From Daphnia carinata (lineage: Eukaryota): DNA of 64,000 nucleotides. Positions 23,601-63,160 of the stretch are shown piece by piece. The position numbers and the translations under genes were made by a program. How positions within the stretch are numbered: the first letter of the stretch is position 1; every line of letters begins with the position of its first letter. The DNA lies in contig NC_081333.1 in assembly GCF_022539665.2 (NCBI RefSeq), forward strand, positions 4,340,001-4,404,000, in the 5' to 3' direction. The notes below the pieces were generated by a model, which was not told where the DNA came from, did not search any database, and saw only the letters and a list, made by a program, of their open reading frames with translations.

Positions 23601-24915
23601 ATGTCGATTATCCGGAACACGCCGACTACGCCAAACCCATCCGCAAAAAGTATACATTATTTTTTATTACACTTTCTCCTTTTTTGTTTGTGGTTTAGTT
23701 CAAACACCCGCCCCTTTTTAAGGTTTTGTTTGAAGCAGAGAGTTTACCGATTAGATTTAACTGCTTTGTTTACTGTTTTTTCTTTCGACACATCCGAAAT
23801 GTTGGAATAGCGTGTGCGGATCCATCGAAGCTTGTTGCATTTATCCTTTCCTTTTTTTTTTGTGTGTGGAAAATAATAGGATGGAAGACACGTTAAAATT
23901 CAGCGGATCCATGGAGCAAGCCTCGCAGTCACGCAAGGATTACGTGGAGTTTCACGCTGAGCGACCCGTCATCAAGAAACTGCAGGACAACATACCCGTG
24001 CATCCGTCCAACGGCTACACAGACGGGCAGCAACAGTCGACGCAGAGGGACTACGGGCAAGTCGAGTCCAAACGGCCCATCATCAACAAACTGCACGACA
24101 ATTTGAAGATGGAAGGCGACGTCGACTTGCAAACGGCCTATCAGAAATCCTACGTCCAAAAAGCCGATCCCGTGCGTCCAGAAATTAAGCGCATGCACAG
24201 CACGTTGGCCGTCCCAGGAGGAGATTTCACTACGGAATCCGTAGTCAAAGCGGATTATCCGGAACATCGGGTCCAGCGACCGACCATCGCCAAACCCGTT
24301 GGTCAGTTGCAGAGTCACGATTCATCTTGGGGTAGTAATGGGGCATCCAGACCAGCAGCCGGAATTCGTCGAATGAGTCAACATACTGACGCTCCAGCGG
24401 GAATGAATTATCTTCAAGCGGGACCAAACATGAATCGCGTCCGCCAGATGGAATCTTCAATTCATTTCGGATCGGGTAATTCGCCGGCAATGATGAGCGA
24501 AGCTCAGGATTCGTTTATTCCGCTGGATGGCGCTCTAAAGAGTCAATTGATGAGGCCGCGTACCAGCAATCGACTGCAAGATTGGAACGTTAGCGAACCT
24601 ACTGCTAGAGGTCGGAATCGAATGAATGCTGCCAACAATAATATGCAACAATCACCGCCAATGACCAGGGACCAAGTAGTTGCCCAACAGGCGAGGAGGA
24701 AGCATCAAGCGACCGAATCATCGTTGTCGTTGAATCAGGGCGGACAACCGGCCAACGAGACGGACGGATCTCTTTACAAAAAGAGCTTCACGTTACCGGC
24801 AATCGAGCCGTGTCCAGCCGCTGTGCTGCATGTGGATGACAAATCAAATTATGAGTTCACTAGAGAATTACATAATCATCGTTTCTATCGGCCCATCATT
24901 AACTCGATGGGTTGA
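20691..24915 (+). CDS. SAXO-family (STOP/Mn-motif) microtubule-stabilising protein (exons 20691-20743, 22200-22641, 23201-~23649, 23880-24915)
   Basis: Splicing gives MELPAFEEKCICQICTCG|RHRCRKH, the SAXO N-terminal Cys motif, followed by many repeats of (T/S)xxxxDY...RPxIxKLxDNL. Confidence 0.8.
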
Positions 24916-30452: not shown

Positions 30453-30965
30453 ACAAAAAAAGGCGGATGCATAAACTTTGCCCAAACATAGACTTTTTAG
30501 GATTCAGCATCTAGCTGAGTATACTAAAAAGCTAGGGATTTATCGACACAACCGTTCTCTTCATAAGAACGTCATACTACTAAAATTTTAAAACATATTT
30601 CTGGTTAATTTGATGGTTGGACAAAAGCTGATAATTCTGTTCTTAATACGAATGTACAGGGGAGCGATTCAGCAACAGTCCATCATCTTTGAAATCAGAA
30701 TAGAATTCACAATGCCCCTTACGTGTAACTCTTATTCGGATTTACCACAATGTGTACATCTATGGATCATTTAAAAAATCTGTGCAATAAAGAGGGCAAG
30801 TAGAACGTTTCGTAATCTAGGAAGCTTGCATCTGCGTAACAAGTTTCGCAGCCACATTAAACTATTAGGAATGGCCACTGACCTTGCTGACGAAGTTGTC
30901 TTAATAGTCCGAGACCATTTCAATTTGATGTCCACACAGCGAAGTGTTGTTTTACATGTCGCCGC

Positions 30966-39159: not shown

Positions 39160-39900
39160 CGAGCCGTGTCGTAGAGTACGACAGATGTTCCAATTTTAGT
39201 TTTTCATCAACATTCAAAATGTTGATGAGAAATTTTTTTACTCGCTAGAAAAACTGTGTGTATTGAAATGTGAATTATTTCGGTGCTTTTGAACTTTCTC
39301 ATAAAACTTTTTCACCAGTTTGATAGCGACTGATTGTGCATTCAGAACGTTAGGATTCCTGTACATTTTGTTGATTTAAAGAATCAATTGGCTTCAGTAA
39401 TCAGTATTTGCGTTTTCTAACAGCAGGTGAGATCTTGTCTTAAAAGCAACAATCCAGTGATCAAGTTGATAATGATGAATTGTTTTCAACAGTAAGATCG
39501 TTGAGTGCATTAGCATGCAGTTAGAAATAATTAAATGAACATTGGAATTATTTATCATTGCATTTATTTGCACATCACCAAAGATATTCCAAATATCGAA
39601 TGAATCTTAATGAAACGTCAAACTGCACAAATATGCTTACGGCATTTCAATCGACATTAGATGATTTAACGAATGGATTGTCTAGGAAGGCGGAATCGCA
39701 TTTAACGCTGTCTACTGGTTACTCAACTTCTTCTCCGCTGGAAATTCAATTGCCGGCTTCTCATCGAACGCTTAGATAACCTAGAAGATCCCCCACCACC
39801 TGTGAAACGAGACAGCCATTGGGTACATTGAGTGGATTTCTCCATCGACGAAGAAGCAATCGGCTAAGATGGAACCACTTTTCTTGGTTTTAATATCGAT
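39160..39900 (+). pseudogene. Decayed duplicate of the promoter and 5' coding end of OSCA/TMEM63-like gene A
   Basis: Colinear with 55598-56410 (EDPPPPVKR..HWVH, SIDEEAIG*DG) with deletions and stops. Confidence 0.85.
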
Positions 39901-54311: not shown

Positions 54312-56022
54312 CAAAATACCTTTTACAAAAGGTGGTACGGCAGTTGCTTTTTTAACGTAGTCATTCTGTATTACTAAAAAATTCAATCTTCATTATGCAA
54401 ATAAAAAGGAAAAAATTTCGCTAGGGTTGAATCAATAACACAGGACAACTGCTTTCTGATAAAACACAATTCCACGCTTTTCTTTCCTTTTGTTATTACT
54501 GTTACAACTTCGTGATTTCTGTTCTCAACTTTCTTCTCGTCATATTCTCACTTCAAACTGAAGGAATTAGTTCAGTAACGAATAGAACCGACTTTTTTCA
54601 AACAAATGCGAACAAAGGGAAACAAGGTCGAATGCCACGGGGAAAGGTTACCGGATTTCCACAATTAAAAAATAAATAAATTGTTTGGATGTACCTCGGA
54701 TATTGAATTTAAATTTTTATTTAAGGAGTAAGACAGATCACAGTAAATTAATACAACAATTATCTCTATATTATAATCCCCAATTGTACCAAATACGTTA
54801 CTGCTACACGCCTAACGAAAAAGAACTACCAGGCACGCCCACTAACCTTTCTGACGATGACTGATGAATTTTCCAACTTCCCAATAACAGCTTTCCCATT
54901 GAACCAGCTGTAACACTAAAACGCAAAAGGAATCGGTTTTTATGTCCCACAGCATCTTTTCACGTCACATCTTGCTTCTTAAAAAGTTATGCATCCACGC
55001 TTCTAACTAAACACCAGCATTGTACGTAACGTTTAACAACCATTGCAGTGTAACTGGCATAATATGAAGCACTGAAAAATTACGTCTGAAATTCTAATAA
55101 TGTAGAAATGCCCACTAACACTTTGACTTTAATTGTATCAATTAAATTCACTTGTCTAAAACATTTCAAAGAAATTCAACTACCCCACAGTGGCACAGCT
55201 ATCACCGTCAACGTCCAAAGATTGACTGATGCAGCGACTGTAGACGAAGAAAGAAAGCGGCCATTTTTTATTTTTGCTCACCCTTCCCTTTCTTCTTTCT
55301 AAAAACCTTGGAGTTTCTTGGAACTGTCGAAACAAAAAAGGGCCAAATAGCAAATGGCCAACGGCATGAAGGGAAAGGCAACCACTTGAGGCAATGTAAC
55401 TGATGGAGAAACTTAATTACCGGCAGTAAATGCCACCTTCAATTCAAATTATTGTCTCGCGTCGAAAAAGAAATCTGACTAGAACCCAATTCTTGTTCGC
55501 GTCAACACCCAATATCTAATACGGATGCTGTGGTTGTCAGTTTTTGTGGGCTTCCGTTACAATAATAGAGAACCATATATAGCAGACTCCACAAGAATCC
55601 GTGTCGTAGAGTACGATAGACGTTTCAATTTCAGTCTTTCTTCAACATTCTAAATGTGATAAGTTCTCTTCTTCGCTAGAAAAACTGTGTTTATTGGACT
55701 GTGAATTATTTCGATGCTTTCGGACTTTCTCATAAAACTATTCCACCAGTTTGATAGCGACTGTTTATGCATTCAAAAAGTTAGGATTTCTAACGCTGTT
55801 TTGTAAATGTCGTTAAGTGAATTGGCTTCGGTAATCGTGTTTATCTAAGTAACGTCGGTGAGACCTCTCTGAAAGCAGTGCCAAGTTGATAAATGATGAA
55901 TGGTTTTCAACAGTGTGATTGTTGAGTGGATTAGCATGCAGTTGGAAATAATTAACTGAACATTGGAATTATTATAATTGCATTTATTTGCACATCACCA
56001 AAGGATATTCCAAGTATCACAA

Positions 56023-58278
56023 ATGAATTGCAATAAAACGGATGGGAAAATCAAAATGAATTGCAATCATACAGAATTAGAAATCAACACGTCAAACTGC
56101 ACGAATACAGACGCATACGCTTACGGAATTTCAATCGACATTGGATGGTTTAACGAATGGATTGTCTGGGAAGGCGGAATTGCTTTCAACACTGTCTACT
56201 GGTTACTCATCTTACTCATTTCTTTCATCATTCTTTATCTTCTCCGCTGGAAACTCAATTGCCGGCTTCTCACCGAACGATTAGACGGACTTGAAGATCC
56301 CCCACCACCTGTGAAACGAGCCAGCCATTGGGTACATTTGCTGAATTTCTCCATCGATGAAGAAGCAATCGGCAAAGATGGATCCACTTTTCTCTGGTTT
56401 CAATATCGACTAATTCAAATCGAATTCCTTAGAATGGCTCTTGGTATCGTTTTGATTATCATGCATTTCCATAGCGACCAATTAGGTGAATGGCCTAACA
56501 AAACTCTGCGTTCTACGGGTCTTTACAATAGTGGCGTTAATGGGACTCACGGTGTTATCTGCAGTGCAATTCTAACAGTGTTGGCTTGGCTGATGAAGAA
56601 GCACGGACAACATCGTTGTATCCGCTCATTGGCCAGTCACGATGTCAATAGCAATTCGAGCATTTGTAATCGCAAATGGCTTATGATTACTGGACTTCCA
56701 CTTACCACCACTGTCGATTCGCTATTGGAATACTTGATGTGCACGTTTGAAAGCAGTTTTAGCGTCAAAGGAATTCACAGGGAACAGATTGTGATGGCCC
56801 ACGGTCTGAGTAAATTGCTGCCTGTGGTCGATCGCCTGGATTTGATTAGAAACGTTAAATTGCAGATAAACGGAAAGGCAAACAAAGGAAAGATTATTCA
56901 ACGAAGATTTTGGGATTTTAAATCTTACTTTAAAAAAATTGATGCCCTTTCTTATTACAACAAGATGGAAGAAATGCTCACGATAGAAAAGGACAAAATA
57001 ATCAACACATTGGAATTTACTGGAACAGTTTTCATACGTTTCGACAGCCCATCTGAAGCAAAAGCAGTTAAAATCGCCATCAGACGATACCAATCCAATT
57101 TGTTTTGGAAGAGGGAACAGCTGATGAACAATCAATTACAGCCATCTCGATGGACAGTTCGATATGCTCCGCCCGGCTCAGATCTCAGTTGGATCCATAT
57201 GAAAAAACCACGACCCATTTGGAAGACAATGGCAGTATGGCTCAGACTGGCTGTCAGTTATTCAATTTACGTATTCGTGATGGCCGCACCTGCGTCCATA
57301 GTCCGTTGGCTCCACCTGGAAGGCCACGGCCTGGATCACGGTTCAGTTTTTTGGAAGCGATTCGTTTTACCTACGATGGTCTCATTTTTTACCACTACAT
57401 TGACTAACTGGGTTACGCAACAAGATCAACACAGACGTCATTTAACTGTTACTAAAGCAAGTCTGGCCAGTTTTCGATCCATCTGCTTTTTGGAGATCAT
57501 TCTCTACCTGGTACGAATGATGGCCAGAAAACCCCTGCCTTTATTACTGGCGGGCGACTTCAATAGCGACGATTTCCGGCTAGAATGTCTCTTCTTCCCA
57601 GTGCATGGTAGTTTCGTGGCTTGTTGCATCATCGTCAACACCATCAGTGGAATATTACTGAATCATTTACGCTTCGATTTCCTCTGGTCTTATACAAAAA
57701 AATGGTTTACATTTCGATCTGAAGAAGAAAAGAATGTCTACATTACCTCGTATAGAGCCGAATACAATTTTGCATCCAATTACGCCGAACTAGTCAGCAA
57801 TTTCGCTCTGACGAGTATTTTTATCATGATATTTCCAGTGATCAGCCTAGTCTCGTGTGTCTTTTCGATCCTGCGATTCATAAGCGACAGAGCAGCGCTA
57901 ACCCAAATTTATCCCGTCAGTCAAATCGGTCACAATTTACATCGGGAATCGATTAATATGGTGCTGAGATTCGGAATTGCTTCACCATTGACCTTACTTA
58001 TCTATCGAAGAATTCAGCTCGGACCCAGTAGAAACCTACTTGATCCTGGCATCGTAGCTCCGTTGTGTTTAACGATCCTCTATTTAACGTATTTGGTTTA
58101 TGCTCACTTTAAATCGAGGGGTGCCCTGCCGAAATGGTTCCGCCGTTTGTTGAGACTCCGGCCGAGAAATGCACGTTCGAATGAACAGGACGTGATCGAT
58201 TCAATGAGCAATATCCAGAACGAGTATGATCCAGTAGCTCAAATTCGTGAAGACGCTCTGTGTAAAATTCAAGTTTAG
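56023..58278 (+). CDS. Divergent CSC1/OSCA/TMEM63-family multi-pass channel, paralog A, intronless
   Basis: GKDGSTFLWFQ, WLMITGLP, GTVFIRFDS, WTVRYAPPGSDLSW and YNFASNYA resemble family motifs (GxDAxxYLxF, AFVTF, APxPxDIxW, FxxxYA); many hydrophobic segments. First ATG is at 56023 (alternative 56056). Confidence 0.75.
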   Translation: MNCNKTDGKIKMNCNHTELEINTSNCTNTDAYAYGISIDIGWFNEWIVWEGGIAFNTVYWLLILLISFIILYLLRWKLNCRLLTERLDGLEDPPPPVKRASHWVHLLNFSIDEEAIGKDGSTFLWFQYRLIQIEFLRMALGIVLIIMHFHSDQLGEWPNKTLRSTGLYNSGVNGTHGVICSAILTVLAWLMKKHGQHRCIRSLASHDVNSNSSICNRKWLMITGLPLTTTVDSLLEYLMCTFESSFSVKGIHREQIVMAHGLSKLLPVVDRLDLIRNVKLQINGKANKGKIIQRRFWDFKSYFKKIDALSYYNKMEEMLTIEKDKIINTLEFTGTVFIRFDSPSEAKAVKIAIRRYQSNLFWKREQLMNNQLQPSRWTVRYAPPGSDLSWIHMKKPRPIWKTMAVWLRLAVSYSIYVFVMAAPASIVRWLHLEGHGLDHGSVFWKRFVLPTMVSFFTTTLTNWVTQQDQHRRHLTVTKASLASFRSICFLEIILYLVRMMARKPLPLLLAGDFNSDDFRLECLFFPVHGSFVACCIIVNTISGILLNHLRFDFLWSYTKKWFTFRSEEEKNVYITSYRAEYNFASNYAELVSNFALTSIFIMIFPVISLVSCVFSILRFISDRAALTQIYPVSQIGHNLHRESINMVLRFGIASPLTLLIYRRIQLGPSRNLLDPGIVAPLCLTILYLTYLVYAHFKSRGALPKWFRRLLRLRPRNARSNEQDVIDSMSNIQNEYDPVAQIREDALCKIQV

Positions 58279-58752: not shown

Positions 58753-60609
58753 ATGGCTTTCTTAACCTCTTTACATCCAAAAACGTTAAACAAAAAAACC
58801 GGCACTTACTACGTGAAAAAGGACGTTCTCGGTGTCGGTAGTTTTAGCATCGTTTTTCGTGGTTCTCATCGCGGCCTGGATGTGGCTGTCAAACGAATCG
58901 AGTTGCATCGGCTGGATCCGGACGACCGTGAAGCCAAGTTGCAAATGAAACTCGAACACGAAAATGTTTTGAAAATCTTCGCTGTAGAAAAAGATGACGA
59001 TTACAGGTACATTTCAAAACATTTTCAAATGATGTTACGTGCTACATTTTATGGTTTATCAGGTACATTATATTAGAGTTGTGCGTTGGAACCCTTGACC
59101 AAGTGTATGAGAAGGGCAAAGTGTACGAAGGACCTGCCCTGCCACCTGATCAAACAGTCATTTACCAAATTGCTATGGGATTGGATTACATCCATTCGAG
59201 AAATCTGGTCCATCGCGACGTCAAACCGGACAATATTCTCATTTCCAAAACGGGTGAAATGAAACTATCTGATTTCGGTTTGTGCAAACAAATTTGCCCG
59301 AGGGAAACGTTCTCGATGAGCGGATTTAAAGGAACTGCGTCGTGGATAGCGCCGGAGCTTTTAAAGGCAGTCGATAATGAAGGACAAATTCAAATTAAAG
59401 GTACAACAAATAGCGACATTTTCTCAGCGGGTTGCGTGTTTTTCGTGTTCGTCACGCGCGGGACCCATCCATTCGGTGACGACCATATCGCAGTGCAAAT
59501 TAACATCCGCAATAATCAACAAGTCAACATTGACAGTGAGTGCATAGAACATAATTTCTTTTAAATTATTTTTGAATAACATAAACGAATTTTTTAAAGA
59601 ATTAGATTCAGATCATTTTACGAGCTCTGTCATACGTAAAATGATTGAACCTGAACCATCACGCAGAATGCCTCTCACGCAAGTGAAAGAATTGTTCAAA
59701 GCGATCCCGCGGAGGCTTCGCGGGCTTGGCTCTTTAGGTCAGAAGCAATTTTAAAAAATGCGAAATAAAAATTGTCTTTTAATTATTTAAGTTCTGATTA
59801 TAGGCTCGTTCAATGAAGTTGAAAATCGTAACACTACGAGCAACAAAGAAGGTATTCCACATACTCCGCCCGCGAGACGGCGCACGAAATCGATTCAAAG
59901 TGAAAGACGCAAACAATTGCACCATAAATTTCACGGAATCCATTTAAGCAGTTCACCTACCACCGATGCTGGGCAATTTTTCCCGATGGCCAAAGGAGCC
60001 ACGTTGGGAGTCCCGCTGGAAAATTGCCCGCGGTCCACCAAACACGAAAACATTCCAAAGATAGTCGAAGTGTGTATCAGCATCATCGAAGAGCACGGAA
60101 TGGACAGTGTTGGTGTGTATCGCGTTCCAGGTAACGTGTTGGTCGTCAACGATATCTCCGATTCCCTCAACAAAGGAGATTTCGATCAGTTACATCCGCG
60201 CGGGAATGAAGTCAACATCATCTCGTCCGTCATCAAATCATTCTTCCGCAAATTACCCGATCCATTAGTGACGTCAGAGTTTTACAGTTCTTTAATCGAA
60301 GCTAGCAAAATGGAACCGGAAGAATTCCGATTGACGGCCATCAAACAACTGGTGGAAGAATTACCCGATCCTCATTACTCGACGTTGCGTTACCTCATCG
60401 TTCACCTGTCTCGCGTGGCTCGTATGAGTAGTGTCAATAAAATGGATGCTCGGAATTTGGCTACAGTTTTTGGACCGACGTTAGTCAGGCCAGGTGATGA
60501 CAGTATGGCAACCATGATGGCCGACATGCCTTACCAATGTCGCATTGTTGAAATGCTGATCGACAAAGTGGACTTCTTTTTCCCACCGTCATCCAATGAC
60601 GCTGTTTAG
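58753..60609 (+). CDS. IRE1-like kinase fused to an ARHGAP21/23-like RhoGAP domain (exons ~58753-59006, 59063-59535, 59600-59737, 59804-60609)
   Basis: Kinase: LGVGSF, VAVKR, HRDVKPDN, DFG, GTASWIAPE, THPFG. Exon phases join in frame to a RhoGAP with GVYRVPG (arginine finger), KSFFRKLPDPL, NKMDARNLATVFGPTL. Confidence 0.8.
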
Positions 60610-60901
60610 CACTTCCCTGCCTATTTGAATAAAACCTTCTCAATCAATTGCTACCTCAAATTTTAAATACACTCAAATCGAATATCCATGTTCGTGCGAT
60701 CGTCCACAGCACCTAATCCCATTTACAATTGTACAGCCCATTACGCTCAATAAACTGTTGAATTATGTTTGATAAATGGACGTAAATTAAATACATCGAA
60801 ATGGTCATCTCTACTACATAATTTCCATTGGAAATCAATTGCAGATAGCGAAAACTGCGGCTTACTGACCAACGATTTTTAAACTATCGATAATTACAAA
60901 A

Positions 60902-63160
60902 ATGGATCGAATACGTTACGCGGAGAAAATGAATCAAACGTTGAACGCATCCGTAAATCCTGAACTACAGGTTAACACCTCCAATTGCTCCCGTCCAGAT
61001 GCTTACGACATTTCAATTGAAATTGGTTGGTTCAACGAATGGATTGTTTGGGAAGGTGGGATCGCTTTTCACGCTGCGTACTGGTCCATCATTTTATTCA
61101 TCTCATTTACGCTATTCTATGTCCTTAAATGGAAATTCAAATGGTGGTGCCTTTGTAAACGATTTGACGGAAAATCTCATCCCTCAATGCACGTGAAAAT
61201 GAGCTGGGCCAATTGGCTTCGCCTGTCCATCAACGAAGAGGCTGTCGGTAAAGATGGGGCTACTTTCCTTTGGTTTCAATATCGATTGATACAAGTTGAT
61301 GTACTCAGAATTGCTCTTGGCATAATCTTAATTATCATGCACTACTATGGCGACAAGCTGGGCGAATGGCCTAACAAAACTGTGCGTTCTACAGGACTGT
61401 ATAACATCGGAGTTAATGGCACTCACGGTGTTTTCTGCAGCGCTATTCTAACGATGTTGGCCTGGCTGATGAGACAGCACGGACACGATCGCTGCATCCG
61501 ATCATTGGCCAGTCACAACGTCAATAGCATTTCGAGTGTTTGTAATCGCAAGTGGCTCATGATTACTGGAATTCCACTTACCACCACAATCGATTCGCTA
61601 ATTGAATTTATGAAAAGTAGTTTCGATTTAAAGGGAATTAAGCGTGAGAACATCGTTATGGCCAAAGATGTTAGTAAACTACTGCCCGTTGTGGATCAGA
61701 TACATAAGATTAGGAATATCAAGCAACATTTAAATGGGCCAGCATTCATTCGACGTCCATTTTGGAAATTTTGGGATTGCCACTCTACTGACGATGTAGC
61801 TGACACAGTTATGCACGGACCAGAGTTTAAACAACATTTACCTGAAGAGAAGTCCAGTGATCAAATCGATGCTGCTACGTATTACAAATTAAAAGAAGAG
61901 GCTCTTTTGGTCAAAAAAGAGAGTCTCATCAATAATTCGGAATTCACAGGTACAGTTTTCATCCATTTCGACAGTCCAGCTGAAGCAAAGGCCGTGAAAA
62001 TTACGCTCACTAAACGCACATCCAATTGGTTTTGGAATCGTAACAGGGACGAAAATCCGGAATTCCAGCCGTCGCAATGGACCGTTCGATATCCTCCACC
62101 CAGCGCTGACATCAACTGGATCGATTTGAAAAAACCCCGCCCAATTTGGAGAACACTGGCACTCTATCTGCGATTGGCACTGACCTATTCTATTTACATA
62201 ATCCTAATGGCTGCACCGGCTAGTGTCATCCGCTGGCTCCATTTGGAAGGACATGGCTTGGATGAAGGTTCAATCTTTTGGAAGCGATTCGTGTTGCCAA
62301 CAATTGTATCTTTCTTCACCACCGAACTCACTGACTGGGTAACTGGGCAGGACCAACAACGACGTCATTTAACCGTAACTTCCATGTGTCTGGCCAGTTT
62401 AAGATCCATCTGCTATTTGAACATAATCCTGTACTTGATACGAATGTTGGCCATGAAACCGCTTCCCTTATTATTTGCTGGCAAATTTTACAGCCAGGAT
62501 TTCCGGCTGGAATGTCTTTTCTTCCCAGTGCACGGTAGTTTCGTTGCCTGTTGCATCATCGTTAACACGGCCAGCGGAATATTGATGAATCACCTGCGCA
62601 TCGATTGTGTTCTTTCTTATCTCAAGAGTTTGTTCAAATTCCGGTCGGATGCGGAACAAACGGCCTTTAAGGATTCGTACAGAATCGATTTCGATTTTGC
62701 CTCCAGTTATGCAGAATTGACAAGTAATTTTGCTCTGACCAGCTTTTTCATGACGATTTTCCCTGTGATCAGCTTGATTTCTTGCTCTTTTTCCCTCCTG
62801 AGATTTTTGAGCGATAGGACTGCTTTAACTGAGATATATCCTGTTAGTCACACTGGTCACGATTTACACAAGGAATCGATCAACATGGTGCTGAGATTCG
62901 CAATTGCATCACCTTTGGCATTGATTGTGTACCGACGAATCCAGTTGGGCCCTACCGTTCAATTATTGGATCCAGGTGTTGCCGCTCCTCTGTCTTTACT
63001 CATTCTGTACGTTACGTATCTGCTTTACGCTCAATTTAAATCAAGCAGGAAAAACGATTCCATTGAAGACGAGGAAGGTAATTCGATTCAAATGATGGCA
63101 CACGAATATGATCCAGTAGCTCAAATTCGAGCAGAGACACGTTTGGGGACTCAAGTTTAA
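60902..63160 (+). CDS. Divergent CSC1/OSCA/TMEM63-family channel, paralog B, intronless
   Basis: Full-length paralog of 56023-58278 with the same motifs; DRE-type TATCGATA at 60885-60892. Confidence 0.75.
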   Translation: MDRIRYAEKMNQTLNASVNPELQVNTSNCSRPDAYDISIEIGWFNEWIVWEGGIAFHAAYWSIILFISFTLFYVLKWKFKWWCLCKRFDGKSHPSMHVKMSWANWLRLSINEEAVGKDGATFLWFQYRLIQVDVLRIALGIILIIMHYYGDKLGEWPNKTVRSTGLYNIGVNGTHGVFCSAILTMLAWLMRQHGHDRCIRSLASHNVNSISSVCNRKWLMITGIPLTTTIDSLIEFMKSSFDLKGIKRENIVMAKDVSKLLPVVDQIHKIRNIKQHLNGPAFIRRPFWKFWDCHSTDDVADTVMHGPEFKQHLPEEKSSDQIDAATYYKLKEEALLVKKESLINNSEFTGTVFIHFDSPAEAKAVKITLTKRTSNWFWNRNRDENPEFQPSQWTVRYPPPSADINWIDLKKPRPIWRTLALYLRLALTYSIYIILMAAPASVIRWLHLEGHGLDEGSIFWKRFVLPTIVSFFTTELTDWVTGQDQQRRHLTVTSMCLASLRSICYLNIILYLIRMLAMKPLPLLFAGKFYSQDFRLECLFFPVHGSFVACCIIVNTASGILMNHLRIDCVLSYLKSLFKFRSDAEQTAFKDSYRIDFDFASSYAELTSNFALTSFFMTIFPVISLISCSFSLLRFLSDRTALTEIYPVSHTGHDLHKESINMVLRFAIASPLALIVYRRIQLGPTVQLLDPGVAAPLSLLILYVTYLLYAQFKSSRKNDSIEDEEGNSIQMMAHEYDPVAQIRAETRLGTQV

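Follow-up and report, generated by a model that had tools for sequence, protein, structure and literature searches.

The gene at 58753-60609 on the forward strand of the window (the whole 64,000-nucleotide stretch of DNA analysed here) is a real in-frame chimera, which joins an IRE1-like kinase to a complete GAP domain of the ARHGAP21/RhoGAP19D type. By its full architecture, this gene is neither IRE1 nor ARHGAP21; it is a lineage-specific chimera, very probably produced by exon shuffling. The reading that we favour combines an origin by exon copying with a working GAP gated by the kinase fold and, taken as a whole, has about an even chance of being correct.

Structure and splicing of the kinase-RhoGAP gene

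The fusion gene contains four exons, all on the forward strand, which join into a single frame of 1671 nt encoding 556 residues, with no internal stop. Exon 1 (58753-59006) encodes the N-lobe of the kinase, including a Gly-rich loop where the third Gly is replaced by Ser and the VAVK lysine, K47 (58891-58893). It is followed by intron 1 (59007-59062; 56 nt, GT..AG, phase 2), the site of which is common to another kinase gene of the window, at 2223, and to L001, a second fusion gene described below. Exon 2 (59063-59535) carries the kinase core, namely HRD (D137), DFG (D155) and GT..W.APE, and, after intron 2 (59536-59599; 64 nt, GT..AG, phase 1), exon 3 (59600-59737) supplies the end of the C-lobe. 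Intron 3 (59738-59803; 66 nt, GT..AG, phase 1), identical in site and phase in L001, marks the kinase-GAP junction. Exon 4, the last one, is 806 nt long, in agreement with the approximately 800 bp given in an earlier note on this DNA. It starts with a linker (59804-60054), whose homology to the PH-GAP linker of ARHGAP21 is clear from about residue 324 (59908) and weak upstream, continues with the Pfam RhoGAP match (60055-60492), which contains the R395 finger, K433, R437, N500 and N506, and ends with the last GAP helix, a short tail and the stop (60493-60609). The Pfam Pkinase match lies in exons 1-2 (E 7.8e-32), and the RhoGAP match in exon 4 spans positions 1-146 of 148 (E 3.7e-48). Two AATAAA motifs at 60628 and 60749 (within 60628-60754, forward strand) are candidate polyadenylation sites. 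The window is characterised by short introns, and its best named protein matches are from Daphnia.

The earlier note had given the kinase exons the intron positions of the kinase at 2223. Indeed, introns 1 and 2 coincide with those of that gene in position and phase, but no counterpart of intron 3 was found there, the third exon of the kinase at 2223 running to a stop near 3222. An alternative acceptor of intron 3, at 59791, is also in frame and would add 4 residues, while retention of this intron would stop the fusion frame 5 codons on. Near 60603, the tail contains one extra base compared with three relatives, which makes it 7 residues shorter than that of P0277.

Splicing was assessed with public sequencing runs, 4 of 19 of which were mapped. 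The mapped runs come from relatives (mostly 90-95% alike) and not from the window genome, the 19 runs sharing a word fraction of 0.05-0.06 with the window; X11 is the sole mapped run recorded as RNA, and X1, X5 and X9 are taken as RNA by guess. All three introns are skipped by single contigs of X1 (1683 nt) and X5 (1795 nt), from two studies, whose shorter arm at the kinase-GAP junction measures 135 letters. The X11 contig skips introns 1 and 2; at 59738, it runs into a loose end of 27 letters, and X9 into one of 15. Both loose ends resemble by eye the start of exon 4 and fall short of the 31-letter threshold. The kinase-GAP junction is thus spliced as one message in relatives approximately 90% identical to the window, and the in-frame splice that the earlier note read from the sequence is borne out. 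A processed DNA copy in the X1 and X5 relatives is formally still an alternative source of the intron-less contigs; the introns are kept in both genomic copies, the window and L001. That the gene model joins two neighbouring genes by chance is hardly credible: the mapped runs are from relatives with a shared-word fraction of 0.06 at best, but the spliced contigs come from two studies and the identical kinase-GAP junction is present in L001 and Daphnia galeata.

The fusion lies between two single-frame TMEM63/OSCA-like genes on the same strand (55978-58278 and 60869-63160; Pfam PHM7_cyt, 766 and 763 residues, 62% identical). Both are intronless and possibly retrocopies; a related piece is found at 39164-39899. 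A 497-nt X1 contig (58227-58857) on kinase exon 1 has a loose end that resembles, by eye, the end of the upstream TMEM63-like gene, reflecting either conserved gene order in the relative or read-through. Further upstream (25400-54400, forward strand), four tandem genes each combine two kinase-like domains with a long ankyrin exon of about 630 residues. They show 74-82% DNA identity in long matches and share, by eye, the first intron site of the fusion kinase; their layout recalls tandem-kinase receptors. A 384-residue frame with no Pfam match (23761-24915) is repeated near 30962, 40264 and 47831; the copies are interspersed with the kinase-ankyrin units and show 76-90% DNA identity. The window also carries exons of a Syntaxin-18 N-terminal domain (5201-6160, forward strand) and of a heme oxygenase (6302-7000, reverse strand).

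Origin, distribution and age of the GAP exon

The best named match of the fused GAP is P0004, an ARHGAP21/RhoGAP19D-type protein of D. sinensis, with 65% identity. As regards descent from the ARHGAP21/23-RhoGAP19D-PAC-1 lineage, the fused GAP falls inside a clade, supported at 100/100, with the D. sinensis gene and its close relatives. The fused GAPs themselves form one clade (100/100) with two subclades, and this tree shows a single origin of the fused GAP.

The exon layout of the parents was deduced from protein frames called on contigs by intron-ignoring callers, and not from DNA. In P0003 (from a cluster whose contigs reach 44 kb), the PH domain is closely followed by 22 inserted residues that end in a Phe run; they are missing from the spliced D. 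sinensis protein, and P0003 then continues without interruption through the linker and the GAP. The whole GAP is unbroken in 13 of the 15 parent-type frames, the other two beginning inside the GAP. In all 15, intron-like text begins 26-32 residues past a fixed motif (14 recognised by pattern, one by eye). The fusions stop 26-32 residues past the same motif in seven of eight rows; the window row stops at 19, because its final codons are shifted by the base that three relatives lack. Four parent-type rows (P0278, P0441, P0447 and P0005) continue past the exon border unbroken and therefore the border intron is not universal, and two others (P0449 and P0289) show an apparent intron inside the GAP. 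Since the parent frames are unbroken and the stop positions match, the intronless state of the GAP is likely inherited and the copy would end at an exon border.

A DNA-level copy of one already-intronless ARHGAP21/RhoGAP19D exon was, very probably, placed behind the kinase. The copied exon would then be spliced through phase-1 intron 3, with its acceptor inside the old exon, and translation would end at the old exon border. The nearest sister, a kinase-alpha-kinase gene (P0274), apparently has no intron at the intron 3 site, and the kinase gene is not shown to be the source of this intron.

The earlier note had considered the GAP possibly retrocopied. An origin of the exon from a reverse-transcribed ARHGAP21 message, shortened later by a stop, is very improbable. 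The GAP exon is indeed intronless, stand-alone partial copies of the GAP segment exist in D. pulex and the locus is flanked by two single-frame TMEM63-like genes, but the parent stretch was apparently intronless beforehand and the fusions stop at the parent exon border. Hence, as far as the parent frames tell, no parental introns were lost in the copied stretch. Neither continuation to the 3' end of the message nor a poly(A) remnant was found: the approximately 750 downstream residues of the parent leave no trace 3' of the fusion (best other tblastn E 0.17), and no A-run occurs in the 260 bases between the fusion stop and the next open frame, though age could have erased such traces. The D. 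pulex stand-alone partial copies belong to the P0278 and P0447 clusters (EFX68347.1, EFX79292.1, EFX64738.1, EFX64745.1 and EFX64746.1), and in one 39-member cluster the finger motif is altered. It seems that the ARHGAP21 GAP segment is prone to copying.

A scan of metagenome contigs reduced 51 candidate stretches to one locus, L001. This locus holds another full-length fusion gene, whose three introns agree with those of the first in site and phase and whose DNA is 67% identical to it; protein identity is 68.5% for the kinase, 71.9% for the GAP and 37.5% for the linker. A third fusion, D. galeata CAH0107577.1 (553 residues), carries both Pfam domains and is annotated merely as a kinase-domain protein. 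Additional fused-type GAP exons were found in P0277, P0432, P0433 and P0446. Among the proteins compared, 1 of 556 matched both kinase and GAP, and the kinase family was found on none of the longer RhoGAP matches among the best 120 of 1638; the D. galeata fusion was hidden behind the fragment representing its cluster, so D. magna, D. pulex and D. sinensis may carry fusions that these counts miss. A position of the fusion clade among daphniid-like parents has an AU p of 0.40, and a position outside all cladoceran-like parents is rejected at the borderline (p 0.046).

The fusion sequences found are confined to Daphnia-like ones, and the fusion is neither recent nor widespread as judged from these comparisons. 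This contradicts the "young" chimera of the earlier note, as orthologue-like fusions share 69-72% of their amino acids, their synonymous sites are nearly saturated and D. galeata has the fusion too. The tree places the kinase at 2223 in a group with genes of D. magna and D. sinensis (100/99), a hint that the source species belongs to Ctenodaphnia. Fossils place the split of the Daphnia subgenera at about 145 million years, as given in PMC3123605. If the species is of Ctenodaphnia and the two subclades are orthologues, the fusion would be older than this split.

The two domains and their possible function

The fused GAP has the features of a RhoGAP domain, i.e. both a complete fold and the finger/Lys/Arg/Asn set. 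The arginine finger is R395 (codon 60121-60123), and R395, K433, R437, N500 and N506 are conserved in all five fusions and all 11 parents; the conserved Lys and Asn of RhoGAP domains have known roles. Together with the nearly complete Pfam match and the 100/100 clade, the finger confirms the ARHGAP21-type RhoGAP named by the earlier note. In a structure model of the GAP, 173 of 267 residues reach a pLDDT of at least 90, and the linker has low confidence. The best Foldseek match of this model is the p190A GAP (5irc_A, E 1.4e-13), and it also matches RhoGAP chains from complexes with RhoA or Cdc42. The fly orthologue of the parent is described as a Cdc42 GAP positioned by alpha-catenin, and a Cdc42-contacting position has been predicted in the RhoGAP19D-type GAP (PMC7927664). 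By descent, Cdc42 is likely the substrate of the fused GAP. Five residues past the arginine finger, the five fusions carry V, M, F, F and S, and all 11 parents carry S; by way of a motif, we take this +5 position to be, likely, the predicted Cdc42-contacting one. The GTPase specificity of the fused GAP may have shifted.

Selection was estimated at two depths. Between the window and X5, 23 synonymous and 13 non-synonymous changes were counted over 166 GAP codons (36 of the 39 differences), giving a dN/dS of 0.146 (p 1.5e-7). Between the window and L001, dN/dS is 0.16 for the kinase, 0.10 for the GAP and 0.55 for the linker; these ratios are rough, since dS is near saturation (1.3 for the kinase, 1.8 for the GAP). 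A count for the kinase, from 39 of the 40 rows listed out of 194, gives 25 synonymous and 13 non-synonymous codons. By these estimates, kinase and GAP are both under purifying selection (dN/dS 0.10-0.16). The earlier note had suggested comparing the GAP with its parent; run instead against X5 and L001, the comparison indicates purifying selection. At the same time, the fused GAP evolves fast: the stem of its clade measures 0.27 and a further 0.17-0.33 separates this stem from the tips, compared with 0-0.04 in the nearest parent rows, and mean pairwise identity is 77.7% among five fusions versus 92.5% among 11 parents. At residue 422, the clade of the window has Gly where the parents have a conserved Trp, and the I509 position is T or A in all five fusions.

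The kinase of the window has all active-kinase motifs: the VAVK Lys, the helix-C Glu, HRD, DFG and GT..W.APE. In L001 and D. galeata, EFG replaces DFG, and the GT before W.APE is GP or AP; some L001-type/P0432-cluster alleles also have HGD for HRD and retain the GAP. Two of the three full-length fusions are therefore predicted to carry pseudokinases, while the window kinase looks active. The non-Daphnia matches of the kinase, among those listed, are nearly all IRE1/IRE2 (43-48% identity), and IRE1 accounts for all 13 PDB matches with E <= 1e-30 obtained for the sister kinase P0132. The IRE1 RNase family is absent from the Daphnia members among the matches listed. The three RhoGAP-bearing kinases cluster (91/87, not starred), and their nearest neighbours (98/95) are a D. 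pulex kinase-alpha-kinase, two kinases from D. magna and D. sinensis and the kinase at 2223. An ESM Atlas search with the D. galeata fusion protein returned kinase clusters only. A single-chain model of this protein, built with a kinase-only alignment, is poor outside the kinase (mean pLDDT 56.7) and uninformative on domain contact.

The sister kinases bear other tails. In P0133, the tail is an alpha-kinase (Pfam E 2.5e-50). In P0132 (D. magna), it contains an eIF4G-like eIF4E-binding stretch whose best PDB match is eIF4G1 (5t46_B; E 0.0012, an optimistic value as the stretch was picked by eye), with 9 of 10 PDB matches being eIF4G or 4E-BP. P0131 (D. sinensis) has a tail related to that of P0132, and a second short motif in both may resemble the PABP-binding site of eIF4G. 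Remoter family members are pseudokinase-kinase pairs with WD40 repeats, and the four kinase-ankyrin genes of the window form a far branch of the kinase tree. The kinase at 2223-3222 (forward strand) stops shortly past its kinase domain, and a Pro/Ala/Thr-rich frame (3410-3979, forward strand) lies downstream of it. This low-complexity frame does not match the P0132 tail significantly (best E 0.55); the kinase at 2223 may have lost or replaced its tail.

The chances are slightly better than even that the fused domain is a working GAP, predicted to switch off Cdc42/Rho GTPases. Parental targeting relies on PDZ, PH and alpha-catenin binding, according to PMC7927664 and PMC10249030. The fused GAP would have lost the PDZ and PH/Arf-binding part of this targeting, and the kinase fold would now set where or when it acts, as a gate or a scaffold. 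The affinity or specificity of the GAP has likely been altered by substitutions close to the surface that faces the GTPase. Control would operate through conformation, pairing or scaffolding and not through phosphorylation alone, as the kinase looks active in the fusion of the window but is predicted to be a pseudokinase in its L001 and D. galeata counterparts. Furthermore, since it is under purifying selection (dN/dS 0.16) against a predicted pseudokinase, the kinase fold probably does something besides catalysis. The "kinase-controlled GAP" of the earlier note is thus the better fit of its two guesses, provided that control is not understood as phosphorylation alone, which two predicted pseudokinases among three fusions make unlikely.

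The other guess, an integrated decoy, rests on circumstantial evidence. The GAP would then act as bait for a parasite effector or for effector-locked GTP-Rho, with the kinase or pseudokinase relaying a defence signal. Several observations point this way: the unrelated tails of the sister kinases (alpha-kinase, eIF4G-like, pseudokinase-kinase-WD40), the four tandem kinase-ankyrin genes, and the fast evolution of the fused GAP with changes at the +5 and I509 positions relative to the parents. Manipulation of Rho is also sensed in fly and mammal immunity (PMC8084149), and wheat receptors with a pseudokinase-kinase and a decoy domain are known (PMC13478195). Fast evolution could indeed fit a sensor or decoy as well as a modified GAP. 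On the other hand, the catalytic residues of the GAP are invariant and dN/dS is well below 1 at two depths; as to selection on a bait surface, the domain-wide dN/dS is 0.10-0.15, with a fast rate and one variable loop position in few sequences. Moreover, the effectors listed in PMC8084149 modify GTPases or mimic their regulators and do not attack GAPs, and the kinase, the presumed output, is the half with catalytic losses in two of three fusions. In the literature listings, nothing linked these genes to infection through expression, genetics or binding, and we therefore rate this explanation as rather unlikely.

It is improbable that the two domains are loosely coupled, both useful and conserved with no mutual regulation, the kinase gene having given the GAP a new promoter and location. 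The linker agrees with such an arrangement in its 37.5% identity, dN/dS of 0.55 and low model confidence, but the kinase fold is under purifying selection (0.16) even when a predicted pseudokinase is the sequence compared. Our preferred reading stays that of a functional GAP with the kinase fold as its gate.

Comparison with known systems

ARHGAP21 and ARHGAP23 are large PDZ-PH-RhoGAP proteins without a kinase. Together with Drosophila RhoGAP19D and C. elegans PAC-1, they represent the source of the GAP of the fusion and of part of its PH-GAP linker. The fusion differs from them by the lack of the PDZ and PH/Arf-binding domains (Pfam finds the kinase and RhoGAP families only) and of the long C-terminal tail, by its N-terminal kinase and by its much faster evolution. 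With IRE1 (ERN1/2), it shares the IRE1-type kinase domain. However, no luminal domain, membrane span or KEN RNase is recognised (Pfam), the 556 residues being filled by kinase, linker and GAP, and the fusion belongs to a Daphnia-expanded set of soluble IRE1-like kinases.

The pairing of a kinase and a RhoGAP domain in one chain has precedents. BCR combines an atypical kinase with a RhoGAP. In Dictyostelium, two ROCO kinases and one STE-group kinase carry a RhoGAP domain, and PMC1420674 states that such extra domains are generally missing from metazoan orthologues. The Dictyostelium proteins belong to other kinase groups and have an independent origin. What seems new is the IRE1-like version in animals, for which no description was found: the literature listings gave no account of this gene or kinase family, the IRE1/RNase L fusions catalogued in PMC3710099 do not include this one, and the main text of PMC12102780 has no matches for kinase, ankyrin, IRE1 or Rho, though its supplements may list the family. 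The fusion offers a testable case of a new signalling protein that very probably arose by copying one exon and has long been kept. Its host is a model genus, for which CRISPR is available and the parasites have been studied in depth.

Beyond this gene, the finding extends to its family: one kinase module precedes tails as diverse as RhoGAP, alpha-kinase, WD40 repeats and an eIF4G-like motif. A kinase joined to a borrowed host domain, within a family of varied partners, is a feature of integrated decoys and is present here. Similarly, the cereal proteins WTK4, RWT4 and Pm4 combine a kinase or pseudokinase with a borrowed host domain and include tandem-kinase members with varied extra domains (PMC13478195). 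In contrast to these receptors, the Daphnia kinases belong to an unrelated lineage, the borrowed domain looks catalytically intact and they have no known effector, helper receptor or resistance trait. One may speculate, at decidedly less than even odds, that the soluble IRE1-derived kinases and pseudokinases of Daphnia are an animal counterpart of the cereal kinase-fusion receptors, whose tails (ARHGAP21 GAP, eIF4G stretch, alpha-kinase, WD40, ankyrin) would act as baits against parasite attack on Rho signalling and translation, with the fusion as a guard of Rho. Daphnia are reported to have no PGRP receptors (PMC4833078). If the tails are baits, Daphnia would possess intracellular sensors of a class so far overlooked, in parallel to the tandem kinases of plants.
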